Assembly: GCF_988243305.1 (NCBI RefSeq)
Contig: NZ_OZ547136.1
Length of the DNA: 64,000 bases
Strand: one strand, 5' to 3'
Shown here: positions 1,829 to 54,175 of the stretch, piece after piece
How positions within the stretch are numbered: position 1 is the stretch's first letter
How the letters are laid out: the number at the start of each line of letters is the position of its first letter
Notes under the pieces: generated by a model
The model's database searches: none
What the model was told of the DNA's origin: nothing
Seen by the model: the letters and a program-made list of their open reading frames with translations, nothing else
Made by a program: the position numbers and the translations under genes

Positions 1829-2317
1829 ATGAGTGAGATAGTGATACGCCATGCTGAAACGCGCGATTACGAGGCCATCAGGCAGATTCACGCCCAGCCG
1901 GAGGTGTATTGCAACACGCTACAGGTGCCTCATCCTTCCGATCATATGTGGCAGGAGCGACTCGCCGATCGTCCCGGCATCAAGCAACTCGTCGCCTGTA
2001 TTGATGGAGACGTCGTGGGCCATCTCACCATTGACGTGCAACAGCGCCCACGCCGCAGTCATGTTGCAGATTTTGGTATTTGTGTCGACTCCCGTTGGAA
2101 GAATCGCGGCGTCGCCAGCGCCCTGATGCGAGAGATGATTGAAATGTGCGACAACTGGTTGCGGGTAGATCGTATTGAGCTAACGGTGTTCATCGATAAC
2201 GCGCCAGCAATTAAGGTCTATAAAAAATTTGGATTTGAGATTGAAGGGACTGGCAAGAAGTACGCATTACGTAATGGTGAATATGTCGATGCGTATTATA
2301 TGGCGCGGGTGAAGTAA
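1829..2317 (+). CDS. yhhY: GNAT-family N-acetyltransferase
   Basis: ATG at 1829 preceded by AAAGGA; 162 aa starting MSEIVIRHAETRDYEAIRQIH; the ORF-track start at 1736 is probably an upstream extension. Confidence 0.85.
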   Translation: MSEIVIRHAETRDYEAIRQIHAQPEVYCNTLQVPHPSDHMWQERLADRPGIKQLVACIDGDVVGHLTIDVQQRPRRSHVADFGICVDSRWKNRGVASALMREMIEMCDNWLRVDRIELTVFIDNAPAIKVYKKFGFEIEGTGKKYALRNGEYVDAYYMARVK

Positions 2318-2324
2318 GATAGTG

Positions 2325-2349
2325 CCCTTTTTCTGAGATGGAAAAAGGG
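2325..2349 (+). terminator. Putative hairpin after yhhY
   Basis: CCCTTTTTC-tgagatg-GAAAAAGGG inverted repeat directly after the yhhY stop; no clear U-tract. Confidence 0.3.
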
Positions 2350-2551
2350 TGTCATTCAAAATCGGCATACCTTCCTTTAATGTATTTATTTTCCCAATAA
2401 ATATATAAGATTTACCTCATAATTACGTCCTAAAGTGTAATATTTTATTATTAATATATACGCCTACAATTTCCTGGAGTAAATAAATAACAATTAACAA
2501 GCATAATAGTGCCATTAATAAAATAGCATGCCATAAAAGGACTTTTCAGGG

Positions 2552-3730
2552 ATGAGTAATATTGTTTACCTGACAGTAACGGGAGAACAACAAGGAAACA
2601 TCTCCGCAGGTTGTGGGACTACTGAATCTATAGGTAATCGCTGGCAGAGTGGGCATGAGGATGAAATATTTACATTCTCACTCGCAAATAGAATTACTAA
2701 TACGGGACTTGGTTCACAGTTACAGGGTATGACATTTTGTAAATTAATTGATAAAAGCACTCCATTACTTATTAATTCCATTAACAATAATGAGCAATTA
2801 TTTATGGAATTTGACTTTTATAGAATCAATAGATTTGGTAGATGGGAAAAGTATTATTATATACAACTAAGAGGCGCTTTTTTATCGGCTATTCATCATC
2901 AGATCATTCAAAATCAACTGGATACAGAAACAATAACTGTTAGTTATGAATTTATCCTCTGTCAACATCTTATCGCAAATACCGAGTTCAGCTATTTGGC
3001 ACTCCCTGAAAATTATAACCGTTTGTTTTTACCAAATTCAAAAAACCAAACAAATAATCGTTTCAAAACTTTAAACAGCAAAGCTATTGGCAGGCTACTT
3101 GCTGCTGGTGGCGTATACAATGGGAACATTGAAGGATTCAGAGATACTGCGGAAAAACTGGGTGGAGATGCAATAAAAGGCTATGATCAAATACTAAATG
3201 AAAAAACAGCGGGCATAGCGATAGCAACAGCATCTATTCTTTTAACAAAGCGTTCTAATGTTGATACATATACAGAAATAAATAGTTACTTAGGCAAACT
3301 TAGAGGTCAACAAAAACTTCTTGATGGTATAGACATAATAGAAATAATATACATTAAGAGACCTTCAAAAGACTTAGCTAACTTACGAAAGGAGTTTAAT
3401 AAAACTGTAAGAAAAAATTTTCTTATCAAACTTGCAAAAACCTCCGAAGCATCTGGAAGATTCAACGCCGAAGACCTTTTAAGAATGAGAAAGGGCAATG
3501 TTCCTCTAAATTATAATGTTCACCATAAACTATCTCTAGATGATGGTGGTACTAATGATTTCGAAAATTTAGTATTAATCGAAAACGAACCATATCATAA
3601 AGTTTTTACTAACATGCAATCACGAATAGCTAAGGGAGTATTAGTAGGTGAAAGCAAAATCACTCCCTGGGCCATTCCATCTGGCTCAATTTATCCTCCC
3701 ATGAAAAATATTATGGAACCCACAAAATGA
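2552..3730 (+). CDS. yhhZ: Hcp-domain protein with a C-terminal HNH-like nuclease motif (T6SS-type polymorphic toxin)
   Basis: 392 aa; N-terminus IVYLTVTGEQQGN...EDEIFTFSL...KLIDKSTPLL fits the Hcp pattern; C-terminus has NVHHKLSLDDGGTNDFENLVLIENEPYH; AT-rich coding sequence. Confidence 0.85.
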   Translation: MSNIVYLTVTGEQQGNISAGCGTTESIGNRWQSGHEDEIFTFSLANRITNTGLGSQLQGMTFCKLIDKSTPLLINSINNNEQLFMEFDFYRINRFGRWEKYYYIQLRGAFLSAIHHQIIQNQLDTETITVSYEFILCQHLIANTEFSYLALPENYNRLFLPNSKNQTNNRFKTLNSKAIGRLLAAGGVYNGNIEGFRDTAEKLGGDAIKGYDQILNEKTAGIAIATASILLTKRSNVDTYTEINSYLGKLRGQQKLLDGIDIIEIIYIKRPSKDLANLRKEFNKTVRKNFLIKLAKTSEASGRFNAEDLLRMRKGNVPLNYNVHHKLSLDDGGTNDFENLVLIENEPYHKVFTNMQSRIAKGVLVGESKITPWAIPSGSIYPPMKNIMEPTK

Positions 3731-4221
3731 TGACTAAGACCCAAATAAATAAATTAAAAAAAATGATGAATGATTTAGACTATCCATTTGAAGCACCGCT
3801 TAAGGAATCATTTATTGAAAGTATAATCCAAATAGAATTTAATTCTAATTCAACTAATTGCCTGGAGAAGTTATGTAATGAAGTTAGTATTCTTTTTAAG
3901 AATCAACCTGATTATCTTACTTTTTTAAGAGCAATGGATGGATTCGAAGCTAATGGATTACGATTATTTAGCCTCTCGATTCCAGAACCTTCAGTTAAAA
4001 ACCTTTTTGCCGTAAATGAATTTTATAGAAATAATGATGATTTCATAAACCCTGATCTACAAGAACGGTTAGTGATCGGTGATGATAGCATTTCAATATT
4101 TACTTATGACATTAAAAATAACTTTTTTGAAATTAGAGATAATATTGGCACCGAAAATATATTCAGTTCGTTTAGTGATTTCTCTTCATTCTTAAACGAA
4201 ATCATGGACAGTTGTTCATAA
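3727..4221 (+). CDS. yrhA: Putative cognate immunity protein, translationally coupled to yhhZ
   Basis: 164-aa ORF overlapping the yhhZ stop (ATGA); AT-rich; intact here, whereas the K-12 locus is recalled to be interrupted by IS1. Confidence 0.6.
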   Translation: MMTKTQINKLKKMMNDLDYPFEAPLKESFIESIIQIEFNSNSTNCLEKLCNEVSILFKNQPDYLTFLRAMDGFEANGLRLFSLSIPEPSVKNLFAVNEFYRNNDDFINPDLQERLVIGDDSISIFTYDIKNNFFEIRDNIGTENIFSSFSDFSSFLNEIMDSCS

Positions 4222-6854: not shown

Positions 6855-7295
6855 ATGAAACGACTTCTGATTCTTACGGCACTCCTGCCGTTTGTCGGCT
6901 TTGCACAGCCCATTAATACTCTGAACAACCCTAACCAGCCGGGGTATCAGATCCCCAGTCAGCAGCGGATGCAAACCCAGATGCAAACGCAGCAAATCCA
7001 GCAAAAAGGGATGCTGAATCAGCAACTGAAAACGCAAACTCAGTTGCAACAACAGCATTTAGAAAACCAGATAAACAATAATTCACAGCGGGTGTTGCAG
7101 TCACAGCCGGGGGAGCGAAATCCCGCCCGGCAGCAAATGCTGCCCAACACCAACGGCGGGATGTTAAACAGCAACCGTAATCCGGATAGTTCGTTGAATC
7201 AGCAGCATATGCTGCCGGAGAGGAGAAACGGCGACATGCTGAATCAGCCCGGCACGCCGCAGCCTGATATACCGTTGAAAACTATTGGGCCGTAA
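6855..7295 (+). CDS. yhhA: Secreted Gln/Asn-rich protein YhhA (DUF2756)
   Basis: 146 aa with an N-terminal signal peptide and a low-complexity Q/N-rich body; 14-bp overlap with the convergent ugpQ. Confidence 0.85.
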
Positions 7296-8025
7296 AGTTC
7301 GGACCAATCACGTCAATCGCATCGGTGCAGATGCAATCCACGCCCCAGCGCAGCAACTCTGCCGCGCGCTGGGGTTTATTGACGGTATAAACCAGAATCC
7401 GTAATCCGGCGTCTTTCAACTGCATCACTCGCGCTTTATCGAGCAACTTATGATTGAGATGAATAGAGACGCAGCCCAGCCGCGCGGTCAGTTCTCGCCA
7501 GTCGTCGCGCCACTCATCAAGCAATAAACCGCGCGGCAGTTCTGGTACTGCTTGTTGCGCGGCTTCTAAAGCATCAATCTCAAACGATGACAGCAGCGGC
7601 GGCGTCATATCGGCCCACAGTTCGCGTGCCGCCAGCGCCACCATTTTGCCCGTTAATGGCCCGGTGCCAGTGGTAGGTTTGATTTCGATATTCGCCATCA
7701 TCCCGTGTTCGCGACAGCGTTCCGCCACCTGCGAAAGCAACGGCAGCGGCTCACCTTTAAACGCTTTGCTGTACCAACTGCCCGCATCCACGCGCAGTAA
7801 ATCCTGCCAGTTCAGTTCACCCGCGACGCCCCAGCCGTTGCTGGTACGTTCAAGATTGTCGTCATGGAGCAGGAAGATCTCGCCATCTTTCGATAACTTC
7901 GCGTCAAATTCGATCATCTTATGACCGTATTTTGCCCCAACGTCGATTGCCGCCAGGGTGTTTTCCGGGGCCAGCTTACCGCCACCACGATGAGCGACGA
8001 TGCGGGGATAAGGCCAGTTACTCAT
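7282..8025 (-). CDS. ugpQ: Glycerophosphodiester phosphodiesterase
   Basis: 247-aa ORF matching UgpQ; last gene of the ugp operon. Confidence 0.95.
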
Positions 8026-9092
8026 ACTCGTTGTCCTGTTTCACCATCAAAAAGATGCAGCTGATTTTCTGGCAGATGCAGCCACAGCGTGCTGCCTGCT
8101 GTCGGGCGCTCCTGATGCGCCAGCCGAACCACCAGCTTCTGTTCGCCCCAGCGTCCGTGCGCCAGATTATCAGCGCCGAGGATCTCCAGCGTGTCCATCA
8201 CCAGCGGTACGCCGCCTTCTGCCTGCGAGCTTAGCGCTATATGTTCCGGGCGAATGCCGAGAGTCATTTTACGCCCGGCATACTGACGGTAGCCACCGTT
8301 TAGCGGCAGCGCGATACCGCCGTCCAGTTCGAAATGCGTGCCTTCGTTATTCACACGCCCTGCCAGCAGATTCATCGCCGGACTGCCGATAAAACTCGCC
8401 ACAAACAGGCTGGCGGGCTTTTCGTACACTTCAACTGGCGTGCCAATCTGTTCGGCAACGCCGCCGTTCATCACCATTACTCGCTGGGCGAGCGTCATCG
8501 CTTCAACCTGATCGTGAGTAACGTAGAGTGAAGTCGTTTTCAGGCGACGGTGCAGCTGTTGCAGTTCAAGACGCATCTGCACACGCAACTTGGCATCGAG
8601 GTTAGAGAGCGGCTCATCAAACAGGAACACTGCCGGCTCACGCACAATCGCACGCCCCATCGCCACGCGCTGACGCTGACCGCCAGATAGCTCACGCGGG
8701 CGGCGCTTAAGCAGGCCGTCCAGCTCCAGAATGCGCGCCGCTTCTTTAACACGTTCGGCAATTTGTTGCTTGCCCATGCCGCGAATTTTCAGCCCCCACG
8801 CCATGTTCTCCTCTACGCTCATATGCGGATAGAGCGCGTAGTTCTGGAACACCATCGCAATCCCGCGATCTTTCGGCTCCATTTCGGTGACACGCTTGCG
8901 GTCGATCCAGATATCGCCCGTCGTTACCCGCTCCAGTCCGGCCACCATTCGCAATAACGTCGATTTCCCGCAGCCAGACGGCCCGACCATCACGATAAAT
9001 TCGCCATCCGCCACATCAAGGGTCAGCGGTTTAATGACCTGGGTTTTGCCATCCCAGCTTTTGGTTACTGCCTGTAATTTCAGTCCTGCCAT
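8022..9092 (-). CDS. ugpC: sn-glycerol-3-phosphate ABC transporter ATPase
   Basis: Walker [10 protein letters not shown] and ABC signature LSGGQRQR; start placed at MAGLKLQAV (356 aa), not at the ORF-track start. Confidence 0.95.
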
Positions 9093-9093
9093 C

Positions 9094-9939
9094 TTATTTC
9101 TCACTATCGACCAGGCCGCGCACGAAGGCACGCTGCATCACTAAAACAATCACTACTGGTGGGATCAGGGTTAACAACATCGCCGCCATCACCGAGTTCC
9201 ATTCCGTTGTGCCTTCGCCTGTGGCGATCATCCCTTTAATCCCTGCCACGGTGGTGCCGAGATCCACGTCGGTAATAATCAACAACGGCCACAAATACTG
9301 GTTCCAGCCGTAAATAAAGGTGATCACAAACAGCGCCGCCAGATTAGTTTTGGAGAGCGGAAAAACGATGTCGCAAAAGAAGCGCATTGGTGACGCACCG
9401 TCGATCCGCGCCGCTTCCACCAGCTCATCCGGCAGCGTCATAAAGAACTGGCGGAAAAGAAACGTGGCGGTCGCCGAGGCCATCAGCGGCAGCGTTAAAC
9501 CGGCGTAGCTGTCGAGCATCTTCAGGTTGGCGATGACTTCCACCGTCGGGAAGATACGCACTTCAACCGGCAACATCAGAGTAATAAAAATCATCCAGAA
9601 GAAGAGGTTACGCAGCGGAAAACGAAACCAGACAATGGCAAATGCCGAGAGCATCGAGACGGTAATTTTGCCGAGCGTAATGCTGAACGCCATCACAAAG
9701 CTGTTAAGCAACATCCGCCAGAAAGGCGCACTATTCGTGCCTACCCCGTTCACCCAGATGTTGTGGATGTTTTCCAGCAGATGTGGGCCGGGGATGAGCG
9801 TCATCGGCGCGGCGTAGACGGCCTGTTTATCCAGCGTCGCCGCGACAAACGCCACGTACAGCGGGAAGAGGATCACCGCGATCCCGAGGATCAGCATGGT
9901 ATGGCTGAATATCGTCAGCCACGGACGGTTCTCAATCAT
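9094..9939 (-). CDS. ugpE: sn-glycerol-3-phosphate ABC transporter permease
   Basis: 281-aa polytopic membrane protein matching UgpE. Confidence 0.95.
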
Positions 9940-10823
9940 TGGTAACGCACCTTGCTTTCAACATAGCGGAACTGCACCACCGTCAGCACGATGACGAGGA
10001 ACATCAACACCACCGACTGCGCGGCAGACGAAGCCAGATCCAGTCCGGTAAAGCCTTCGCGGTAGATCTTATAAATCAGCGTCGTGGTAGCCTGAACCGG
10101 CCCGCCGGACGTAGCGGCGTCGATCACCGGGAAGGTGTCGAAGAAGGCGTACACCAGGTTCACCACCAGCAGGAAAAAACTCACCGGAGCGATAAGCGGC
10201 AGAGCAATCTTAAAGAAGCGGCGAATCGGGCCTGCACCGTCGATGGCTGCGGCTTCGATCAACGAACGGGGAATGGATTGCAGCGCGGCATAGAAGAACA
10301 GAAAGTTGTAGCTAATTTGCTTCCACACCGAGGCAAACACCACCAGGAACATCGCCTGACCGCTGTTTTGCGCATGGTTCCAGTCGTAGCCGAACTCAGC
10401 GAGAAAATGGGTGATCAACCCGCGACCGGGATTAAACAGGAAGATCCATAATACGGCAGCAACGGCGGGAGCCACGGCATACGGCAGCAGCATTAAGGTT
10501 TGATAGAAACGGCTGCCGCGCACGATGTACTCCACCAGCGCCGCAAAGAACAGCGACACCAGCAAACCGCTGACGGTGACAAAGGTGCTGAATTTTATCG
10601 TCGTCCAGAAGGAGTCGAGATAGTAGCTGTCATGAAACAGCGTGACGAAGTTATCCAGGCCGACAAACTGGCTGGAGAAACCAAACGGATCGACGCTTTG
10701 CAGCGAGTACCACAACGCTTCGCCCGCAGGCCAGATAAAAAAGATAACGGTGATGATGAGCTGCGGCGCGACCAGCAAATAGGGCAGCCAGCGCGAGCGG
10801 AACACCGGACGGGATGATGACAT
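9936..10823 (-). CDS. ugpA: sn-glycerol-3-phosphate ABC transporter permease
   Basis: 295-aa membrane protein matching UgpA; 4-bp overlap with ugpE. Confidence 0.95.
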
Positions 10824-10845
10824 AGTTAAACTCTTCGTGTTGTGT

Positions 10846-10990
10846 TCCCCTCACCCCGGCCCTCTCCCCAAAGGGGCGAGGGAGAAAGGCGGTGCATACT
10901 TTCCCACCGAGCGAAGTTGCAAACCGACACGGCACCTGGATACCACGCCGATCGGTCCCCTCTCCCTTTGGGAGAGGGTTAGGGTGAGGG
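10846..10990. repeat. Pair of inverted GC-rich REP-like extragenic palindromic elements between ugpA and ugpB
   Basis: 10846-10890 ...CCCTCACCCCGGCCCTCTCCCCAAAGGGGCGAGGGAG and 10955-10990 GTCCCCTCTCCCTTTGGGAGAGGGTTAGGGTGAGGG in opposite orientation; a third copy lies at 30131-30172. Confidence 0.6.
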
Positions 10991-10998
10991 TAAGAGAA

Positions 10999-12315
10999 TT
11001 AAGACTTCGTAGACTGCTCAAAGCGGCGCAGTAACTGGTTCCCACGCTCAACGGCGGTATCCAGTGCCTGCTGTGGTGTCTTCTTACCGGTCCACACGCT
11101 CTCCAGCTCTTCATCCACAATCACGCGGATCTGCGGCATGTTGCCCAGACGCAGCCCTTTGGTGAACGGTAACGGCGGCTTATTCAGCATCTGACGCGTC
11201 GCGGTATCCGCCCCTGGGTTTTTCTCATAAAAACCCTGCTCACGGGTCAGGTCATACGCCGCTTTGGTGATTGGCAGATAACCAGTTTTCTGATGCCACT
11301 CGGCAGCGTTTTCTGGCTTCGCGAGGAAGTCGAGGAACTTCGCCACACCCGTATAAGTTTCTTTATCTTTACCCTGCATTACCCACAAGCTGGCTCCGCC
11401 GATAATGGCGTTTTGTGGCGCATCTTTCGCATCGGCGTCGTAAGGCATCATGCCTACGCCGTAGTTAAATTTGGCGTACTCGCGAATGTTGGCAAGAGAA
11501 CCGGAAGAGGCGGTGGTCATCGCGCAATCACCGTTATAGAACTTCTCAGTGGATTCATCCTTACGCCCGACGTAGCTGAAATCGCCCTTCTTGTTCATCT
11601 CTTCGAGCATAGCGATGTGTTTCACCTGCTCCGGCTTGTTGAACTCCAGCACCGCGTCTGTGCCGTCAAAGCCGTTGTTTTTGCTGGCAAACGGCAGACC
11701 GTTCCAGGCGCTAAAGTTTTCCAGTTGGATCCAGCCCTGCCAGCCGCTGGCGTAGCCGCACTTCATACCGGAGGCTTTCAGTTTTGCGGCATAGTCCGCC
11801 AGATCCTGCCAGGTTTTCGGCGGCTGTTCCGGGTCTAAACCGGCTTTCTTGAAGGCGTCTTTGTTGTAATAGAGAACGGGAGTCGAGCTGTTGAACGGCT
11901 GGGAGAGTAAGTGGCCGGTTTTGCTGTCGGAGTAGTAGCCTGAAACCGTCGGCACAAACTGCGACTCATCGAACTGAATCCCCGCCTCTTTAAACACGTC
12001 ATATACCGGTTTAATGGCCTTCGACGCCATCATGGTGGCGGTGCCAACTTCATAAACCTGCAAAATAGCCGGCGCGTTGCCGGTACGAAATGCGGCAATC
12101 CCCGCGCTTAAATTCTGTTCGTAGTTGCCTTTATAGGTCGGTACAATTTTGTAATCCGGGTTTTCGGCGTTAAAACGTTGGGCCAGAGAATCCACCTCTT
12201 TACCCAGTTCCCCTTCCATAGAATGCCAGAACGGAATGGTCGTCACTGCCTGTGCATTCCCCATTAACGCCAGTCCGAGCGCCAGTGCTGAAGCTGTATA
12301 ATGTAACGGTTTCAT
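10999..12315 (-). CDS. ugpB: sn-glycerol-3-phosphate periplasmic binding protein
   Basis: 438-aa ORF with signal peptide, matching UgpB. Confidence 0.95.
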
Positions 12316-12433
12316 CGTTTATCTCTCTTGTTGTACCGAATGCGCGAATTCACGCGTTTTATGCTCGCGGGGTAACATGACATGCTCGAATTACAGAAAA
12401 ATAACTTTTTTGTTACATTTGTAAGATAGTAAG

Positions 12434-12451
12434 GTGTCAGAAAGATGACAA
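12434..12451 (-). promoter_or_regulatory. Pho box (PhoB site) in the ugpB promoter
   Basis: Minus strand TTGTCAT-cttt-CTGACAC, two 7-bp repeats 4 bp apart as in CTGTCAT-N4-CTGTCAT; about 120-135 bp upstream of the ugpB ATG. Confidence 0.5.
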
Positions 12452-12510
12452 GGCGGTGACGGCGTGGGTGAGGGAAAATGGGAGATGGGGCACGGATAAT
12501 GCTACGTTGG

Positions 12511-40441: not shown

Positions 40442-40639
40442 CACCTCCCAACGCGCCGTTATTTCCTGACGGCGCAGTAGACTTCTGCCAAATATCGACT
40501 CACGTCACATTTTTTTGATCACGATTTGGTCCCTCAAAATGTGAGACGCTTCGATCCTCTTTTTCTCCCGTTCACCTACTATACGCTTGAAGTTGTCCAT
40601 GATTGTCCATAGACAACTGTAAATGTTCAGGTGCGCGCC

Positions 40640-41386
40640 ATGAAATCATTAAGTAAGTCGTCACAAATACCGCTCTATCAACAAGTGGTGGAGTGGATAA
40701 GAGAAAGTATTTATACCGGGGATTTGGTGGAAGACGATCGCATTCCTTCGGAATACCAGATTATGGATATGCTGGAAGTGAGTCGGGGAACCGTTAAAAA
40801 AGCAGTCGCCCAACTGGTAAAAGAAGGCGTGTTGATTCAGGTCCAGGGGAAGGGAACATTTGTCAAAAAAGAGAACGTGGCATATCCGTTAGGTGAAGGA
40901 TTATTGTCATTCGCGGAATCGCTGGAAAGCCAGAAAATACACTTTACCACTGAAGTTATTACGTCACGGATTGAACCGGCTAATCGTTATGTGGCAGAGA
41001 AATTAAGAATAACGCCCGGTCAGGATATTCTTTACCTTGAGCGTTTACGTTCAATTGGTGATGAAAAAGCGATGCTGATAGAGAACCGTATCAATATTGA
41101 GCTATGCCCCGGCATCGTGGAAATCGATTTTAATCAACACAATTTATTTCCAACAATAGAAAGTTTGTCGCAAAGAAAAATTCGTTACTCGGAAAGTCGC
41201 TATGCCGCGCGATTAATTGGTAATGAACGCGGTCATTTTTTAGATATCAGTGAAGATGCACCCGTTTTGCATCTGGAGCAGTTAGTCTTTTTCTCCCGAG
41301 AGTTACCCGTTGAGTTTGGCAACGTCTGGTTAAAAGGAAATAAATATTATCTGGGTACCGTGCTGCAACGGCGGGAATTGAGTTAA
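40640..41386 (+). CDS. GntR/HutC-family transcriptional regulator (winged HTH plus UTRA-type effector domain)
   Basis: About 248 aa; N-terminus IPLYQQVVEWIRESIYTGDLVEDDRIPSEYQIMDMLEVSRGTVKKAVAQLVKEGVL is a typical GntR HTH; not in K-12 at this position. Confidence 0.8.
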   Translation: MKSLSKSSQIPLYQQVVEWIRESIYTGDLVEDDRIPSEYQIMDMLEVSRGTVKKAVAQLVKEGVLIQVQGKGTFVKKENVAYPLGEGLLSFAESLESQKIHFTTEVITSRIEPANRYVAEKLRITPGQDILYLERLRSIGDEKAMLIENRINIELCPGIVEIDFNQHNLFPTIESLSQRKIRYSESRYAARLIGNERGHFLDISEDAPVLHLEQLVFFSRELPVEFGNVWLKGNKYYLGTVLQRRELS

Positions 41387-41410
41387 ATACACTTTTTTAT
41401 GAGGAATAAA

Positions 41411-41884
41411 ATGCAAGGCATACAGTTTCAGGAAAATTATATTCAACGACTTCCGTCAGGGTTAAGCGTTGAACAGATCATCCGTCAGTTAGCGCAACCG
41501 TTGGTTGCTGCTGAGCTGGTGGTCCCTGATTTTGCCGATCACGTACTGAAACGTGAGGCGACGTACCCAACGGGGCTGCCTACCGAACCACCGTGCGTCG
41601 CCATTCCGCACACGGACCATAAATATGTCAGGCACAATGCAATTGCCGTCGGCATCCTGCCGGAACCGGTAGAGTTTGCCGATATGGGCGGCGATCCTGA
41701 CCCCGTACCTGTCAGGGTGATTTTTTTGCTCGCCTTAAGCGAAAGTAATAAACAATTAAATGCCCTGGGCTGGATTATGGAGATGATTCAGGATACGCCC
41801 TTTATGTGCGCCCTGCTTACGATGGAAACAACAGAAATACACACAGTAATCTTAAACAAAATGAAAGAACGAGGTGAAATATGA
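41411..41884 (+). CDS. PTS enzyme IIA, type-2 (fructose/mannitol/galactitol class)
   Basis: ATG at 41411 after GAGGA; contains VAIPHTDH, a candidate phospho-His site; about 157 aa. Confidence 0.75.
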   Translation: MQGIQFQENYIQRLPSGLSVEQIIRQLAQPLVAAELVVPDFADHVLKREATYPTGLPTEPPCVAIPHTDHKYVRHNAIAVGILPEPVEFADMGGDPDPVPVRVIFLLALSESNKQLNALGWIMEMIQDTPFMCALLTMETTEIHTVILNKMKERGEI

Positions 41885-42162
41885 GTCAAACCATTTTATT
41901 TGTCTGCGCCACGGGTATTGCCACATCCACGGCGGTAACAGAAAAAGTCATGGAATATTGTAAAGAGCACGGTCTTAACGTCAATTATTCCCAAACCAAC
42001 GTTGCCTCTTTACCTGGAAATACTGACGGCGTAGCACTGGTAGTCTCAACGACTAAAGTGCCTTATGAACTCGACGTCCCGGTGGTTAACGGCTTGCCGA
42101 TTATTACCGGTATTGGCGAAGAGAAAGTACTGGCGCAAATTGTTTCGATCCTTAAAAAGTAA
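41881..42162 (+). CDS. PTS enzyme IIB, galactitol family
   Basis: 93 aa; MSQTILFVCATGIATSTAV resembles GatB with the phospho-Cys in the C(A)TG motif; 4-bp overlap with IIA. Confidence 0.8.
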   Translation: MSQTILFVCATGIATSTAVTEKVMEYCKEHGLNVNYSQTNVASLPGNTDGVALVVSTTKVPYELDVPVVNGLPIITGIGEEKVLAQIVSILKK

Positions 42163-42238
42163 TTAATAATAATTAATTTCAACCCACTCCATCAGGCGCT
42201 AACGCGAGGTGCGCTCTCGCCTGAAAAAGAGGTTTATT

Positions 42239-43597
42239 ATGAACGATATCGCGCATACCCTCTATAATATTGTGCAATATATATTGGGATTTGGTCCCAC
42301 GGTAATGTTGCCGTTGGTGTTATTTATTCTTGCTCTCTTTTTTAAAGTAAAACCCGCTAAAGCCTTACGTTCGTCATTAACGGTCGGCATTGGTTTTGTC
42401 GGTATTTATGCCATTTTCGATATTCTTACCAGCAATGTCGGGCCAGCGGCCCAGGCGATGGTTGAACGCACCGGAATTAATTTACCGGTGGTGGATTTAG
42501 GCTGGCCGCCGCTTTCCGCTATTACATGGGGTTCGCCAATTGCCCCGTTTGTTATTCCCCTGACTATTCTGATTAACGTGGCGATGCTGGCGTTAAATAA
42601 AACCCGCACCGTTGACGTAGATATGTGGAACTACTGGCATTTTGCCCTTGCCGGTACGCTGGTTTATTACAGCACCGGCAGCCTGTTCTTTGGTTTGCTG
42701 GCAGCGGCGATTGCTGCGGTGGTAGTACTTAAACTCGCCGACTGGTCTGCGCCACTGGTACAAAAATACTTTGGCCTGGAAGGGATCTCTTTGCCGACGC
42801 TCTCTTCGGTGGTGTTCTTCCCGGTCGGTCTGCTGGTCGACAAAATCATCGACCATATCCCCGGCCTCAATCGTATTCATATCGATCCGGAAACCGTGCA
42901 GAAAAAGTTTGGCATCTTCGGTGAACCGATGATGGTTGGCACTATTCTGGGCATTCTGCTCGGCGTAATTGCCGGATACGATTTCAAAAAAGTCTTGCTG
43001 CTTGGCATCAGCATTGGCGGTGTGATGTTCATCCTGCCACGCATGGTTCGCATTCTGATGGAAGGTTTATTACCGCTGTCTGAAGCCATTAAAAAGTATC
43101 TCAATGCCAAATACCCTGACCGTGACGATCTCTATATCGGCCTGGATATCGCCGTTGCCGTAGGTAACCCAGCGATTATCTCCACCGCCCTGCTGCTGAC
43201 GCCAATCTCGGTCTTTATCGCGTTTGTCCTTCCGGGTAATGAAGTCCTGCCGCTTGGCGACCTTGCCAACCTGGCGGTAATGGCGTCGATGATTGCTTTA
43301 GCCAGCCGTGGCAACATTTTCCGCACCGTTCTGGCGGCGATTCCGGTGATTATTGCCGATCTGTGGATTGCGACTAAAATCGCGCCGTTTATTACCGGAA
43401 TGGCGAAAGACGTTAATTTCAAATTTGCCGAAGGCTCCAGCGGCCAGGTCTCCAGTTTCCTTGATGGCGGTAACCCATTCCGCTTCTGGCTGCTGGAAAT
43501 CTTCAACGGCAATCTCATCGCCATTGGTCTGGTGCCGGTTATCGCCCTGGTACTGTATGGTATTTTCCGAATGACGCGGAGCACGGTTTATGCCTGA
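42239..43597 (+). CDS. PTS enzyme IIC, galactitol family
   Basis: ATG at 42239 after AAGAGG; polytopic membrane protein with clear similarity to GatC (GPTVMLP..., ...VDVGWP..., ...PRMV..., ...GNEVLPLGDLA...). Confidence 0.85.
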   Translation: MNDIAHTLYNIVQYILGFGPTVMLPLVLFILALFFKVKPAKALRSSLTVGIGFVGIYAIFDILTSNVGPAAQAMVERTGINLPVVDLGWPPLSAITWGSPIAPFVIPLTILINVAMLALNKTRTVDVDMWNYWHFALAGTLVYYSTGSLFFGLLAAAIAAVVVLKLADWSAPLVQKYFGLEGISLPTLSSVVFFPVGLLVDKIIDHIPGLNRIHIDPETVQKKFGIFGEPMMVGTILGILLGVIAGYDFKKVLLLGISIGGVMFILPRMVRILMEGLLPLSEAIKKYLNAKYPDRDDLYIGLDIAVAVGNPAIISTALLLTPISVFIAFVLPGNEVLPLGDLANLAVMASMIALASRGNIFRTVLAAIPVIIADLWIATKIAPFITGMAKDVNFKFAEGSSGQVSSFLDGGNPFRFWLLEIFNGNLIAIGLVPVIALVLYGIFRMTRSTVYA

Positions 43598-45098
43598 TAA
43601 CAGCGCAGCTATCGTTATCGATATTGGCACCACCAATTGCAAAGTCACCTGCTTTTCCTGCCTGGACGCAACGACGTTGGGCGCGCATAAATTCGTGACG
43701 GCAAAACAGATCTCCCCACAGGGCAATGTCGATTTCGATATCGACGCCCTCTGGCAGGAGGTCCGCCAGGCGATAGCGCAACTGAACGCCGCTTCGCCGC
43801 TGCCAGTCAGGCGGATAAGCATTGCCAGTTTTGGCGAGTCAGGCGTGTTCCTTGACGAGCATGGCGAGATCCTGACGCCAATGCTGGCATGGTATGACCG
43901 TCGCGGTGAAGAGTATCTGGCTACACTTAGCGAGGCAGACAGTGCGGCACTTTATGACATTTGCGGGTTACCGCTGCACAGCAATTACTCTGCCTTCAAA
44001 ATGCGTTGGTTGCTGGAACATTACCCACTGCGTAATCGCCGCGGCCTGCGTTGGCTACATGCGCCGGAAGTACTGCTCTGGCGGCTGACCGGCGAACAGC
44101 GCACGGATATCACCTTAGCCAGCCGCACGCTGTGTCTTGACGTGCGCAAAGGCGAATGGTCAGCGAAAGCGGCGGCGTTGTTACACGTTCCCTGTTCAGC
44201 ATTTGCGCCATTGGTGCAGCCAGGCGAACACGCCGGATGGGTCAGCGAGTCGCTCTGCAAAATGCTTGGGTTCTCGCAACCGGTCAGCGTGACGCTGGCC
44301 GGACATGACCATATGGTGGGTGCGCGAGCGTTGCAGATGATGCCGGGCGATATCCTTAACTCGACGGGGACCACAGAAGGCATTCTGCAACTGGATACAC
44401 AACCGACGCTGGATGAACAGGCCAAACGTGACAAGCTGGCAAACGGCTGTTATTCGCTTGCAAACCAGTTCACCCTGTTTGCGTCGCTGCCCGTGGGCGG
44501 TTTCGCTCTGGAGTGGCTGCGTAACACGTTCCGGCTAACCGATGAGGAGATCGCCGCATCACTTACTCGCGGACATGCGGATTACCTGGCGGGGAACTGG
44601 TCGCTCGATGACATTCCCCTCTTTATTCCACATCTTCGCGGTTCGGGTTCGCCCTATAAAAATCGCCATACTCGTGGATTATTTTATGGGCTTGGCGATA
44701 CGTTAAATATCGACATGTTAATTGCCAGCGTCTCACTGGGATTAACCATGGAATTTGCCAACTGCTTCGCCTGTTTTAATGTGCCTGGCACCAGCGCGTT
44801 AAAAGTGATAGGTCCGGCAACCCAAAATCCCCTTTGGCTGCAATTAAAAGCGGATATTTTACAGCGTCCGGTTGAAGCAATTGCATTTAACGAGGCGGTT
44901 TCTGTCGGAGCATTATTAACTGCCGCACCGGATATTCCACCGCCGCAAGTTACCATAGCCCAACGTTTGTTACCGAATCGGGCGAGATACCATCAATTAC
45001 AGCGTTATCAGCACAAATGGAAAAGCTGGTATCAGTTGAAATTACAACAAGAAGGCGTGATGCCATTACATCATCGGGAGGAACACTATGTTGAATAA
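43590..45098 (+). CDS. FGGY-family carbohydrate kinase
   Basis: 502 aa; N-terminal VIDIGTTNCKV is an FGGY/actin-fold ATPase motif; overlaps IIC and the HPr-like gene. Confidence 0.75.
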   Translation: MPDNSAAIVIDIGTTNCKVTCFSCLDATTLGAHKFVTAKQISPQGNVDFDIDALWQEVRQAIAQLNAASPLPVRRISIASFGESGVFLDEHGEILTPMLAWYDRRGEEYLATLSEADSAALYDICGLPLHSNYSAFKMRWLLEHYPLRNRRGLRWLHAPEVLLWRLTGEQRTDITLASRTLCLDVRKGEWSAKAAALLHVPCSAFAPLVQPGEHAGWVSESLCKMLGFSQPVSVTLAGHDHMVGARALQMMPGDILNSTGTTEGILQLDTQPTLDEQAKRDKLANGCYSLANQFTLFASLPVGGFALEWLRNTFRLTDEEIAASLTRGHADYLAGNWSLDDIPLFIPHLRGSGSPYKNRHTRGLFYGLGDTLNIDMLIASVSLGLTMEFANCFACFNVPGTSALKVIGPATQNPLWLQLKADILQRPVEAIAFNEAVSVGALLTAAPDIPPPQVTIAQRLLPNRARYHQLQRYQHKWKSWYQLKLQQEGVMPLHHREEHYVE

Positions 45099-45357
45099 AA
45101 CCGTGGAGGTCAGAAACAGTACTGGCCTGCATGCACGTCCGGCGGCCTGTCTGGCGAAAGCCGCCAAAAAATATAGCTGTAAAGTGACGCTGCACTATGA
45201 GGGTAATGATATTAATGCCACCAGCATGATGAATATTATGCGCGCCGGAATAAAAGGCGGAAAAACGGTGGAAATACGCTGCGACGGTGATGATGAAAAC
45301 GAGGCCATACAGACTCTCACCGACTTATTTCGCGACCGCTTCGGTGAAGCTGAATAA
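45088..45357 (+). CDS. HPr-family phosphocarrier protein
   Basis: 89 aa; GLHARPAA contains the conserved active-site His; preceded by GGGAGGA. Confidence 0.8.
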   Translation: MLNKTVEVRNSTGLHARPAACLAKAAKKYSCKVTLHYEGNDINATSMMNIMRAGIKGGKTVEIRCDGDDENEAIQTLTDLFRDRFGEAE

Positions 45358-45388: not shown

Positions 45389-46249
45389 ATGCCATTAGTT
45401 AATGGACGGATACTGCTCGACCGCATTCAGGAAAAACGGGTATTAGCGGGCGCGTTTAATACCACCAATCTGGAGACGACGATTTCAATTTTAAACGCCA
45501 TTGAGCGTTCAGGATTACCCAACTTCATTCAGATTGCGCCCACCAATGCACAACTCTCGGGATACGATTACATTTATGAAATCGTGAAACGTCACGCCGA
45601 TAAAATGGATGTTCCGGTCAGTCTTCATCTGGATCACGGGAAAACTCAGGAGGATGTTAAACAGGCGGTGCGCGCGGGCTTTACCTCGGTCATGATTGAC
45701 GGTGCCGCATTATCTTTTGAAGAGAATATCGCTTTCACCCAGGAAGCTGTCGATTTCTGTAAATCCTATGGCGTACCGGTTGAAGCGGAGCTGGGGGCGA
45801 TTCTCGGCAAAGAAGATGATCACGTCAGCGAAGCCGATTGCAAAACGGAACCGGAAAAGGTGAAGACCTTTGTCGAGCGCACCGGTTGCGACATGCTGGC
45901 AGTTTCTATTGGCAACGTTCATGGCCTGGACGATATACCGCGTATCGATATCCCCCTGCTGAAGCGCATTGCCGAAGTCTGCCCGGTGCCGCTGGTTATT
46001 CACGGCGGCTCCGGTATCGCCCCGGAAATATTACGCAGCTTTGTTAATTATCGCGTCGCTAAAGTAAATATCGCCAGCGATCTGCGCAAAGCGTTTATCA
46101 CCGCCGTCGGCAAAGCGTATGTGAATAATCACAACGAGGCGAATCTGGCACGAGTGATGGCATCAGCAAAAAACGCCGTCGAGGAAGATGTGTATAGCAA
46201 AATCCTGATGATGAATGAGGGGCATCGGTTGATTAGAAAGGCATCTTAA
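45389..46249 (+). CDS. Class II ketose-bisphosphate aldolase (tagatose/fructose-bisphosphate aldolase family)
   Basis: 286 aa; LHLDHG and VIHGGSG motifs typical of class II aldolases such as GatY/KbaY/FbaA. Confidence 0.8.
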   Translation: MPLVNGRILLDRIQEKRVLAGAFNTTNLETTISILNAIERSGLPNFIQIAPTNAQLSGYDYIYEIVKRHADKMDVPVSLHLDHGKTQEDVKQAVRAGFTSVMIDGAALSFEENIAFTQEAVDFCKSYGVPVEAELGAILGKEDDHVSEADCKTEPEKVKTFVERTGCDMLAVSIGNVHGLDDIPRIDIPLLKRIAEVCPVPLVIHGGSGIAPEILRSFVNYRVAKVNIASDLRKAFITAVGKAYVNNHNEANLARVMASAKNAVEEDVYSKILMMNEGHRLIRKAS

Positions 46250-46298: not shown

Positions 46299-46658
46299 TT
46301 ATAAATGATTCAAACGCTCATTCAGTGTTTCAATAATATAGGTATTTACAGAGACTTGTTGCTGCGCAGCCGCATTATTAAGGCGTTCACTCAGCGATTC
46401 TGGATAGCGTAATGTAAAGGTCTTAATCTTTTCTGTACGCGCATACGGCTCAATACCCGCAGCTTTACAATCCTCAAGATACTCTCGCAGGGAAAGCTCC
46501 CCTTCTTTTTGCAGCCCCTGAATGCTGTCAGAGACAAAATCACAATAACCTGACAAGCCCAGGAATTTGCCACGAAATGCATTCAGTTCTGGCACGTAAG
46601 TGATAACTGCAGGTTGCCCGGCAATCTCCATAGAGTTTGGTGTCTTCAGTTTGATCAT
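46299..46658 (-). CDS. hicB: HicB-family antitoxin (UPF0150 domain plus C-terminal ribbon-helix-helix)
   Basis: 119 aa; C-terminus TFTLRYPESLSERLNNAAAQQQVSVNTYIIETLNERL is RHH-like; 4-bp overlap with the upstream toxin gene. Confidence 0.7.
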   Translation of the reverse strand: MIKLKTPNSMEIAGQPAVITYVPELNAFRGKFLGLSGYCDFVSDSIQGLQKEGELSLREYLEDCKAAGIEPYARTEKIKTFTLRYPESLSERLNNAAAQQQVSVNTYIIETLNERLNHL

Positions 46659-46930
46659 GGTTTTACCCCTATACTTAGTAACCAGTCACGCACGCTTTCT
46701 ACAGCGCCTTTATCGGTATCTGGCGACGGATGAGGCCGATGGAAACACGCAACGCTCATATTTAGTATGAACTTACAACGCGAACCTCTTCCTTCCTTAA
46801 TTTCTCCGCCTAATGCTTTAACCAGTGACTCTATATCAGACCACTTAATCCCTTGAGGAACAGGAGATTTAAATATTTGATCCAATGTATTTTTTTGTTT
46901 CTTCCGTAAAGCCTGTACCTGGGTTCTCAT
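46655..46930 (-). CDS. hicA: HicA-family (YcfA-like) toxin
   Basis: 91 aa; LVKALGGEIKEGRGSRCKF...FHRPHP...VRDWLLSIGV fits the HicA pattern; lies upstream of the antitoxin gene as in hicAB. Confidence 0.6.
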   Translation of the reverse strand: MRTQVQALRKKQKNTLDQIFKSPVPQGIKWSDIESLVKALGGEIKEGRGSRCKFILNMSVACFHRPHPSPDTDKGAVESVRDWLLSIGVKP

Positions 46931-52291: not shown

Positions 52292-53914
52292 TCAGAGCTG
52301 TAACATTGTGCGCCTTCTAATCAAAGGCATAAGTCCATTTCTGTTTTTTTCATGCTGGTAAGACTTCCAGGGAGTGGTTATCTCAGGCCCTGCACCAGGG
52401 TTAATTTGGCAATTATGCATGCTGAACATTCTTCCAGCATGTTTACTGTCACGGGCGTTAAGACCTAAAACTGTCCCCGTTTCACCTATGCGTTCTCTTC
52501 CACCATTACCGTTATGTGCAACAACTTGATTTATACCTAACATTTGTGAGCATGCTAATAGTTCTTCAAGTTTCGGTCTGTAATCTGTCGAAACAGAAAA
52601 ATAACGATTAAAGGATCGACAAGAGATAGCCCGGCTAGTTTTAAACTTTTTACCATTAATTATAGTATGATGCTTTTTATTAATAATTGCCGCTAATTCG
52701 ACCGGATCGAGAGCATTGGCCATTTCATCAATAGAGACTGTTATCGGTCCTATAATGTAACGTTTTCGCTGATCATCAAAAGTTATCCCATGATGATTTG
52801 CCATTATTTTGTATTTGGGGTCATAGAAACATACAGGATAATCTTTTATCCCAGCGTAGGTATCCTCATCAAGTGGTTTCATACGCGTGAAGTTCTGCAT
52901 ATAGTTACCATTGCAATTCGTTTCATGATTACCAGCTAATACATGAACATTTTTATTAATACTCATTATGCGTTTTAACAAATCGATGATAAATTGATCG
53001 CCACAGATATTACTAAATCGATCGCCGGTTTGGTCACCCAGAAACGTACATGGCGTCACAGCGTCTTTATTAATAACTAAATAAGGCTGAAGACTTTCTA
53101 AAACTATATCTCTTCTGTTCAGAATACTGATTATTGTATTAACATTAGTGTCAAGTTGCTCATTAAAGTTCTCCCTTAGCAATACGTTGAGAACTTCATC
53201 TTCTATATTAAGCAACTGGCTAAGGAAATTTTCCCCTTCAGCCATGATTCCCAAATATCCCGTTGCGAAAAGCGCGTATAAAACTGCACCAACTGAGCCA
53301 TCGGTATCGCCAAAATAGGTTGGTCTGGTACTTGTGGGATCAACAGGTGAACAATTGGAGAAATAGATTCTGTCAGCGAACTGGGGTTTTATCATTGTTT
53401 CGAATTTAATATCAGATACATTGTATTGCGATATTTTCCAGTTCCAGATGGGTTTGTACGACTCAGTAACTGCAACATCATTAGCATTATCATTTACTGT
53501 CATATTATTAAGTAAATAAACAATGCTGCACCAATTAATATCGGTATCATCAAGAGGGCAACCGTAATTTTTACTATTAATTGTCACAATAAACTGATAA
53601 CTATTATTCCTACGTAGAATATGGGCACGCATGCCCGATAGCATACTATATTTTTCTGAATGATTCGTTTCTATGGTAAATGAAATTTTGTCATCTTGAA
53701 AAGATTGTTGGAAACGTTCTATTTGCCAATCATCAATTTTTTCCACAACTTCACCGAGCATTGTCCTGGCAATACTTGATATATCATCACCTATACCATT
53801 TGCAATATACCCAAACAGTTCTTTAGTGAAGTTAGTAACATGCTCTTGCACCATATCATTTGTTGCGATAGTCGTTATACTGTCGTTAGTACCTGCCACA
53901 GTTCCAATTTTCAT
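52292..53914 (-). CDS. yhiJ: DUF4049-type protein with metallophosphoesterase-like motifs
   Basis: 540 aa; AT-rich; contains YFGDTDGSVG, FLGDQTGDRF and, 29 aa later, LAGNHETN, then HHG; recognisable as E. coli YhiJ. Confidence 0.85.
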   Translation of the reverse strand: MKIGTVAGTNDSITTIATNDMVQEHVTNFTKELFGYIANGIGDDISSIARTMLGEVVEKIDDWQIERFQQSFQDDKISFTIETNHSEKYSMLSGMRAHILRRNNSYQFIVTINSKNYGCPLDDTDINWCSIVYLLNNMTVNDNANDVAVTESYKPIWNWKISQYNVSDIKFETMIKPQFADRIYFSNCSPVDPTSTRPTYFGDTDGSVGAVLYALFATGYLGIMAEGENFLSQLLNIEDEVLNVLLRENFNEQLDTNVNTIISILNRRDIVLESLQPYLVINKDAVTPCTFLGDQTGDRFSNICGDQFIIDLLKRIMSINKNVHVLAGNHETNCNGNYMQNFTRMKPLDEDTYAGIKDYPVCFYDPKYKIMANHHGITFDDQRKRYIIGPITVSIDEMANALDPVELAAIINKKHHTIINGKKFKTSRAISCRSFNRYFSVSTDYRPKLEELLACSQMLGINQVVAHNGNGGRERIGETGTVLGLNARDSKHAGRMFSMHNCQINPGAGPEITTPWKSYQHEKNRNGLMPLIRRRTMLQL

Positions 53915-54175
53915 CTTTTACCTCATATAATTCACCGCGAGGAATACATAGTTATCATTTAATCTTATGACAAACACCTCATGTTCGATGGAAAAATAAT
54001 TATATTTTGCACAAATCATTCAGCCTTAAAGCATAATATGAAATTTCTTATCTCATAGTAGAGAAAGTCCCTAAAGATTGTAGAGGCGTCATCAGAACAT
54101 GCCTCTACAATCGATTAAGAAAAACTATGAAATACTGGCAGGATTAAAAAGATATACCACCGTATTCATGGAGTT

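Follow-up and report, generated by a model that had tools for sequence, protein, structure and literature searches.

The DNA examined here (64,000 nucleotides of contig NZ_OZ547136.1, RefSeq assembly GCF_988243305.1; hereafter the window) is a segment of an Escherichia coli chromosome with the gene order ggt ... zntA ... nikABCDE-nikR, an island, hicBA, yhhJ-rbbA-yhiI ... pitA and dtpB. The island, flanked by nikR and hicBA, comprises seven genes, namely those for a GntR regulator, the EIIA, EIIB and EIIC-Gat components of a phosphotransferase system (PTS), a kinase of the FGGY family, an HPr paralogue and a class II aldolase. All seven lie on the + strand with intergenic gaps of no more than 46 nt, and an identical island gene set is found in the RefSeq annotation of other strains. 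The kinase and its role in this operon are the subject of the present analysis.

Gene content of the island

The seven genes, with the matches used to describe their products, are as follows.

40631-41386, + strand: GntR/UTRA (HutC-type) transcriptional regulator, presumed repressor of the operon (Pfam GntR and UTRA)
41399-41884, + strand: PTS EIIA of the fructose/mannitol/galactitol type (PF00359, E 2e-32; 'AIPH' His motif)
41881-42162, + strand: PTS EIIB of the Gat type (PF02302; NF007643 GatB-like, 60 bits, below the cut-off of 95)
42209-43597, + strand: PTS EIIC, galactitol family permease, EIIC-GAT (PF03611, E 3e-91; TIGR00827, 476 bits, below the cut-off of 542)
43590-45098, + strand: FGGY-family kinase of a distinct subfamily, proposed ketose-phosphate kinase (FGGY_N and FGGY_C)
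45088-45357, + strand: HPr-like phosphocarrier paralogue with His15 and Ser46 (PF00381, E 3e-29; TIGR01003, 103 bits versus a cut-off of 47.9)
45389-46249, + strand: class II (Zn) aldolase dependent on dihydroxyacetone phosphate (DHAP), NF005943/PRK07998 type (PF01116, E 1e-81; NF005943, 557 bits versus a cut-off of 364)

The kinase gene overlaps both of its neighbors. Its ATG at 43590 precedes the EIIC stop at 43597, giving an overlap of 8 nt (ATGCCTGA), and a GGAG is located 8 nt upstream of this start. At the other end, the HPr-like ATG at 45088, preceded by GGGAGGAA, and the kinase stop at 45098 produce an overlap of 11 nt. A scan for promoters and terminators gave matches no better than chance. 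The RefSeq start of the GntR gene is placed 9 nt later than 40631. In E. coli 2012C-4221 (locus L001, 4241-4987) the same gene is annotated as a pseudogene with an internal stop while the downstream genes are all intact, so that expression of the operon may be constitutive in certain strains.

Subfamily affiliation of the kinase

The kinase gene starts with ATG and encodes 502 residues containing AAIVIDIGTTNCKVTC. Pfam identified FGGY_N (E 3e-45, 155 bits versus 28.8) and FGGY_C (E 1e-24, 87.5 bits versus 27) across residues 7-446, and FGGY domains only, i.e. no PfkB domain (PF00294). The reading frame, these matches and the 8-nt and 11-nt overlaps confirm the initial annotation, which had described a 502-aa FGGY kinase with the motif VIDIGTTNCKV overlapping the EIIC gene upstream and an HPr-like gene downstream. 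An AlphaFold2 model built with 100 homologues (mean pLDDT 95.3) has the canonical FGGY fold, and Foldseek aligned it to structures of XylB, GlpK and GntK with TM scores of 0.8-0.85. Residues D11 and D240 are invariant in an alignment with five characterised kinases. The protein thereby displays both domains, the two-domain actin-like ATPase fold, the catalytic Asp and the DxGTT phosphate-1 motif by which the family is recognized. With a dN/dS of 0.04-0.05 relative to two other Escherichia species, the gene is under strong purifying selection.

Within the family, the kinase scored below every curated NCBIfam cut-off: 146 bits for XylB (TIGR01312, cut-off 380), 129 for GlpK (TIGR01311, cut-off 590), 122 for FucK (TIGR02628, cut-off 471; N-domain only, residues 7-314), 87 for GntK (cut-off 649) and 46 for LsrK (cut-off 528). 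Its identity to E. coli FucK, RhaB, XylB, GlpK and LyxK is 18-23% (23% each for XylB and FucK). No solved structure exceeds 23% identity, and the combined search by sequence and fold yielded no clue to the substrate. YgcE of E. coli K-12 was considered as a possible relative and set aside as an unrelated FGGY kinase with 21% identity over part of the length.

The homologue search, on the other hand, returned Enterobacterales orthologues at 60-98% identity and a broad second tier at 33-40% identity, whose scores of about 310-380 bits greatly exceed that of any characterised kinase. Across 100 kinases of this kind about 39 positions are invariant, including A-G-H-D-H-M-x-G and L-N-S-T-G-T-T-E-G, and members occur in Enterobacterales, Enterococcus, Listeria, Bacillaceae, Negativicutes, Coriobacteriia and Actinobacteria. 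Judged by its sequence, the kinase defines an FGGY subfamily of its own that matches no characterised one. With all equivalog cut-offs missed, it was not found to belong to any well-characterised subfamily acting on a free sugar, an affiliation that the initial annotation had considered. Its database names are all generic, apart from RefSeq records in which the gene is automatically named 'fucK'; indeed every database name for the enzymes of the island is either generic or wrong ('fucK', 'gatY').

In the alignment, the catalytic Asp is flanked by His (GHDHM), as it is in the ketose 1-kinases FucK (AGHDTQ) and RhaB (ASHDTA), the corresponding motif being GGGDNA in XylB and AGDQQA in GlpK. The 'GTTE' of the kinase likewise parallels the 'GTWE' of FucK. 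Among substrate-pocket residues, which were mapped through alignment only, the glycerol contacts of GlpK are not kept: Arg83 is replaced by Gly82, Tyr135 by Asn132 and Phe270 by Gly264.

Aldolase and PTS components

The aldolase is 36% identical to AgaY, 33% to YdjI and 32% to GatY. Residues H80/D82/H83, E142, H178, H205-G-G-S, K225 and N227 are invariant in 86 members of its subfamily and align with AgaY, which means that the Zn ligands, the catalytic Asp82 and Glu142 and the DHAP-phosphate site are all kept in the alignment.

A complete set of sugar-specific EIIA, EIIB and EIIC was identified through Pfam matches to all three. The catalytic residues are intact, as indicated by the 'AIPH' His of EIIA and the N-terminal Cys10 of EIIB in ILFVCATGIATS. 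The HPr paralogue has the expected GLH15ARPA and S46.

Genomic contexts in other bacteria

A genome scan with the kinase subfamily motifs retrieved 80 loci at species level, which were annotated with the island proteins and an FGGY profile. Eight contexts of the module came from exact-protein look-ups, and the gene content of the high-GC actinobacterial loci was taken from called genes and targeted Pfam scans. A PF01116 aldolase of the NF005943 type lay within 5 kb of the kinase in 78 of the 80 loci; the two remaining loci were a 1.3-kb contig and a contig end. Gat-type EIIA, EIIB and EIIC were present in 64 loci (64/80), none of which had a second FGGY gene (0/64). Conversely, among the 16 loci that lacked the PTS, 15 were informative, and all 15 of these had a second FGGY kinase gene immediately downstream, often overlapping. 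These 15 are all from Actinobacteria and have the order aldolase, subfamily kinase, second FGGY kinase and sometimes a third, with uptake by transporters of the major facilitator superfamily or the ATP-binding cassette (ABC) type. In the one actinobacterial example that was scanned, locus L090, the second kinase is XylB-like (TIGR01312, 305 bits; GGGDNAA). The co-occurrence analysis that the initial annotation had called for thus linked the kinase subfamily to PTS genes in most loci and to its aldolase partner in nearly all.

The combination of PTS and FGGY kinase is accordingly not rare, being conserved across Enterobacterales, Firmicutes, Negativicutes and Coriobacteriia. The polyol-type variants described below aside, EIIC and kinase genes generally overlap or directly adjoin each other (Enterobacterales, Enterococcus, Listeria, Anaeromonas/Clostridium, Mitsuokella, Pectinatus). 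In 52 of the 80 loci the module comes with a GntR/UTRA gene. HPr genes are found in 36, i.e. in all 32 Enterobacterales loci with flanking sequence and in four from Bacillales; in the 80-locus survey none was detected in the modules of the other PTS-bearing lineages, Enterococcus, Listeria, Negativicutes and Coriobacteriia, nor in those of Actinobacteria. In Salmonella and most Enterobacterales the HPr gene follows the aldolase gene and not the kinase gene. Neither a hydrolase nor an isomerase was seen in any locus annotated gene by gene, the E. coli island included, and the modules of E. coli, Salmonella, Enterococcus, Listeria, Pectinatus and Mitsuokella contain no isomerase, hydrolase or dehydrogenase.

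The polyol-type variants (e.g. L007, 5706-14596; L059 and L062, 1400-11500) contain two additional genes for Zn-dependent dehydrogenases, of which one is GatD-like (238 bits, galactitol-1-P 5-dehydrogenase), and one for a phosphatase, and their EIIC and kinase genes are usually up to about 200 nt apart. In Pantoea, Erwinia and Raoultella the phosphatase is SurE. The Bacillaceae and Staphylococcus type has an MtlR-like regulator, with a HAD (Cof-type) phosphatase in Staphylococcus. A phosphatase inside an operon for phosphosugar catabolism is odd, and none of the models considered here explains it.

Two further arrangements were observed. On an Enterococcus avium-type contig (L098, 10001-19617; also L035, L036 and L039) a different, second PTS cluster lies directly downstream of the module. 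It encodes a subfamily-like aldolase, an MtlR-like regulator, mannose-family EIIA, EIIB, EIIC and EIID, a Zn-dependent dehydrogenase, a DUF4428 protein, an XylB-like FGGY kinase with 24% identity to that of E. coli and a third PF01116 aldolase with 35% identity. The combination of FGGY kinase, PTS and aldolase in one operon therefore recurs, here with a different FGGY subfamily and a different PTS family. In several actinobacterial loci (L066, L084, L086, L089 and others, at about 7000-12500) three FGGY kinase genes stand in a row after the aldolase gene, the third with a match to Pfam FGGY_N only and followed by a divergent GntR gene. In L086, a monosaccharide-type ABC transporter (Peripla_BP_4) comes after the kinases and GntR.

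Proposed catabolic route

The mutual exclusion of the PTS and the second kinase (64 loci with a PTS and no second FGGY gene, 15 of 15 informative loci with the reverse) implies that the pathway needs two phosphorylations, one of which is supplied by the PTS where there is one. Since transporter, kinase and DHAP-type aldolase are all that the minimal module contains, the simplest chemistry would be a three-step route through a bisphosphate. On balance we favor the view that the kinase converts a ketose phosphate made by the PTS into the ketose bisphosphate cleaved by the aldolase. The island would then be a self-contained module for the breakdown of a ketose with at least six carbons, the minimum size being set by the need for a useful aldehyde-phosphate product. 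Candidate substrates are D-psicose, D- or L-sorbose, D-tagatose or a heptulose.

In the first step of the proposed route, the Gat-family PTS would import the sugar and phosphorylate one terminal hydroxymethyl group, fed in Enterobacterales by its own HPr paralogue. The FGGY kinase would then use ATP to phosphorylate the other end of the sugar phosphate, yielding a ketose 1,n-bisphosphate. In the third step the aldolase would split this into DHAP and an aldehyde phosphate, i.e. glyceraldehyde 3-phosphate in the case of a hexulose. The GntR/UTRA protein would repress the operon until an intermediate accumulates.

The FucK/RhaB-like His-Asp motif indicates that the site of the kinase is probably C1, next to the keto group. 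Together with the XylB-like partner in Actinobacteria and the GatD-like dehydrogenases of the polyol variants, it suggests that the kinase phosphorylates C1 of a ketose that is already phosphorylated at its far end. The dehydrogenases fit such a role since the product of GatD is a ketose 6-phosphate, on which a C1 kinase has yet to act. Likewise, the resemblance to XylB suggests that the partner in L090 may be a distal-end kinase, with a regiochemistry complementary to that of the subfamily kinase. A reversed order of the two phosphorylations would leave the overall picture unchanged.

Several points weigh against this reconstruction. The exclusion pattern demonstrates two phosphorylations, not that both take place before cleavage, and because the loci without a PTS belong to a single phylum it may reflect one or a few evolutionary events. 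We know of no FGGY enzyme that takes a phosphorylated substrate. Furthermore, the aldolase subfamily is without the arginine of the 'DPR' motif of GatY and AgaY, which in the fructose 1,6-bisphosphate (FBP) and tagatose 1,6-bisphosphate (TBP) aldolases binds the distal (C6) phosphate; the position reads N-L-(A/I)-(R/K/S) in the 86 members, with residue 255 being R in 44, K in 21 and S in 11. The same arginine is missing in YdjI, annotated as an aldolase of a monophosphate, ketouronate 1-phosphate. Lys141, invariant in the subfamily (GKEDD) and Val in AgaY, could be speculated to substitute for it. From these sequence features, the aldolase would be classed as a non-canonical class II subtype.

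The initial annotation had offered two roles for the kinase. Phosphorylation of a sugar phosphate that feeds the aldolase is the better supported, through the synteny with the aldolase and the exclusion of PTS and second kinase, with action on a free aldolase product as a remaining competitor (see below). The other, action on a hydrolysis product, has found no support, because the E. coli island and the remaining loci annotated gene by gene contain no hydrolase gene. Either role had been called atypical, which applies to the FGGY fold apparently used for the task and not to the arrangement: a sugar-phosphate kinase is standard in PTS operons (FruK, TagK, LacC), and the present arrangement is widespread. 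The likeness to FruK, TagK and LacC is one of functional analogy, not homology.

Alternative roles of the kinase

Among the alternatives, the one that survives best has the kinase act after cleavage, in the manner of a triokinase. A ketose 1-phosphate, made by the PTS or by the XylB-like kinase of Actinobacteria, would be split into DHAP and a free aldehyde or aldose (e.g. glyceraldehyde or erythrose), and the kinase would phosphorylate this free product. We consider this unlikely; what keeps it alive is the aldolase, which without the DPR arginine resembles the monophosphate aldolase YdjI. Such a pathway would also need exactly two phosphorylations and so fits the exclusion of PTS and second kinase equally. 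The best PDB sequence matches of the kinase are glycerol kinases, enzymes that accept glyceraldehyde, but the glycerol-binding residues of GlpK are not kept, and the catalytic motif is like that of FucK and RhaB, unlike that of GlpK. Both Gat- and Fru-type PTS for tagatose yield the 1-phosphate that this scheme starts from (PMC9720028). In Actinobacteria, however, the XylB-like enzyme would have to phosphorylate C1. To our knowledge, moreover, the substrates of all PF01116 aldolases carry an anionic group at the distal end, be it a phosphate, carboxylate or sulfonate, and all bacterial PTS routes through a ketose 1-phosphate run via a bisphosphate.

It is less probable still, and in our view distinctly improbable, that the kinase serves a parallel entry or salvage, phosphorylating free intracellular sugar at the position otherwise phosphorylated by the PTS, while a housekeeping phosphofructokinase makes the bisphosphate. 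The gat pathway does use the host PfkA for its second phosphorylation, and the free sugar could come from facilitated diffusion, phosphatase action or internal production; the polyol variants carry the phosphatase genes SurE or HAD. All FGGY kinases characterised so far take unphosphorylated substrates (PMC3245297). Such redundancy would, however, leave the PTS loci short of one phosphorylation compared with the PTS-less loci, given that a second FGGY gene is absent in 64 of 64. Nor does it sit well with the retention of the kinase in every PTS-bearing lineage, its start mostly overlapping or abutting the EIIC stop outside the polyol variants, or with the strong purifying selection on the gene.

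Lastly, the HPr paralogue encoded across the kinase stop might regulate the kinase or donate phosphate to it. The 11-nt translational overlap in E. coli and the intact His15 and Ser46 are in line with this, and there are precedents in the activation of Firmicute GlpK by HPr~P, the inhibition of LsrK by HPr and the PTS-driven DhaKLM. The idea is nevertheless very improbable, because HPr is absent from the module in most lineages (Enterococcus, Listeria, Negativicutes, Coriobacteriia and Actinobacteria), is not conserved beside the kinase, standing after the aldolase in Salmonella and most Enterobacterales, and meets no loop with a phosphorylatable His, the one that holds His232 in Enterococcus GlpK reading LGFSQP here (position judged via the E. 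coli GlpK alignment); the simplest role for a dedicated HPr is that of phosphocarrier, like FPr, for the horizontally acquired EIIA.

Distribution and significance

The island was found in 2174 of 5426 complete E. coli genomes (40%), always on the chromosome and nearly always as a single copy. In O157:H7 Sakai it corresponds to ECs_4349-4355, with the kinase as ECs_4353, automatically named 'fucK', and the aldolase named 'gatY'; E. coli K-12 presumably lacks the island at this site. At its right edge in the window, between the aldolase gene and yhhJ, lies a hicB/hicA toxin-antitoxin pair (46299-46930, - strand), in the same arrangement as in Sakai (ECs_4356/4357). The pair may mark the boundary of the island insertion.

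In Salmonella enterica the orthologous cluster, with a kinase 63% identical to that of the window, adjoins uhpABCT. From the gene order and published descriptions this is probably STM3779-3785, with STM3781 as the kinase gene. For that cluster, a genomics paper reports a full PTS 'with unknown specificity' alongside a regulator and an FBP aldolase, acquisition by the ancestor of S. enterica subsp. enterica, repression by H-NS and induction by H2O2 (PMC3604774). The full-text literature yielded incidental transcriptomic or genomic mentions of the module and no functional study, and a review of the FGGY family makes no mention of a link to the PTS.

The logic of such a pathway, i.e. a PTS, a sugar-phosphate kinase and a class II aldolase, is already known. 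What we propose as new is the use of an FGGY enzyme for the second phosphorylation, the non-canonical aldolase subtype and a rare ketose as the substrate of a common enteric accessory operon. Taken jointly, these elements may amount to an undescribed ketose bisphosphate route in E. coli and Salmonella, combining the first FGGY kinase with a natural sugar-phosphate substrate and the non-canonical aldolase; the route would be present in about 40% of E. coli genomes, would have been acquired by the S. enterica subsp. enterica ancestor (PMC3604774) and would have a PTS-free counterpart with two kinases in Actinobacteria. We put this combined claim forward tentatively, as somewhat short of probable. 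Candidate ketoses for it are D-psicose, D- or L-sorbose and heptulose, whose catabolism in this way is not currently known in E. coli or Salmonella.

The module is among the commoner accessory sugar operons of enteric bacteria, and naming its sugar would fill a gap in metabolic models and could indicate a niche nutrient. Loci for rare ketoses have been tied to fitness in the cases of the Klebsiella psicose locus (PMC6020474) and the tagatose cluster of E. coli B2 strains (PMC9720028). If correct, the proposed role would extend the FGGY family to phosphorylated substrates and provide a clean case of the non-homologous replacement of PfkB-type sugar-phosphate kinases.

Other features of the window

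Two further features were noted at some distance from the island. Next to ggt, in a markedly AT-rich segment (35% GC at 2001-4000), an ORF of 392 aa (2552-3730, + strand) begins with a domain of Hcp, the type VI secretion tube protein, and continues in a long C-terminal extension of some 250 aa; it may represent a fusion of Hcp to an effector. At 52292-55849 (- strand), two neighboring paralogous DUF4049 proteins (yhiJ and yheL in Sakai) are encoded in a strongly AT-rich block of 34-38% GC.

Comparison with known systems

The galactitol operon gatYZABCD of E. coli shares with the island the Gat-family EIIA, EIIB and EIIC and a class II aldolase, and GatD-like dehydrogenases appear in the polyol variants of the module. 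The gat operon includes no kinase gene, whereas the E. coli island has its own kinase and no dehydrogenase.

The pairs FucK/FucA and RhaB/RhaD likewise combine an FGGY kinase with a DHAP-dependent aldolase, and the G/S-H-D motif is common to both kinases and that of the island, with GT(W/T)E shared with FucK. The island kinase is nonetheless only 18-23% identical to FucK and RhaB and far below both cut-offs. FucA and RhaD have the PF00596 fold, while the partner aldolase of the island belongs to PF01116. A further difference from the fuculose and rhamnulose pairs is that the substrate of the island enters through the PTS and would hence already be phosphorylated.

In the ydj cluster of E. coli K-12 (YdjH kinase, YdjI aldolase, YdjJ and YdjL dehydrogenases and a transporter), YdjI is also a PF01116 protein without the DPR arginine, and its substrate is a ketouronate 1-phosphate according to RefSeq product names. 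The kinase YdjH is of the PfkB type. With putative transporters (YdjE, YdjK) for uptake in place of a PTS, the cluster carries out only one phosphorylation.

Two other clusters were considered as counterparts of the island and found to be different loci, namely the tagatose cluster of E. coli Nissle, with an ABC transporter and a sugar kinase of about 320 aa, and the psicose locus of K. pneumoniae, with a permease, a ribokinase-like kinase and an allulose-6-P epimerase.

The logic of a PTS followed by a kinase is that of the fructose route, FruBA then FruK, and of the tagatose route, in which the kinase TagK is of the PfkB/FruK type. The latter (tagKTH and gatYZ) is found in Klebsiella oxytoca and Salmonella, with a counterpart in Bacillus licheniformis: TagTH forms tagatose 1-phosphate, TagK, the operon kinase, converts this monophosphate to TBP, i.e. 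the 1,6-bisphosphate, and GatYZ, with a PF01116 aldolase, cleaves it to DHAP and glyceraldehyde 3-phosphate (PMC9720028). The same logic is proposed here for the island, which differs from the tagatose pathway in the FGGY fold of its kinase, in having a Gat-family PTS with a dedicated HPr in Enterobacterales, and in an aldolase that has neither a GatZ-like partner nor the DPR arginine.

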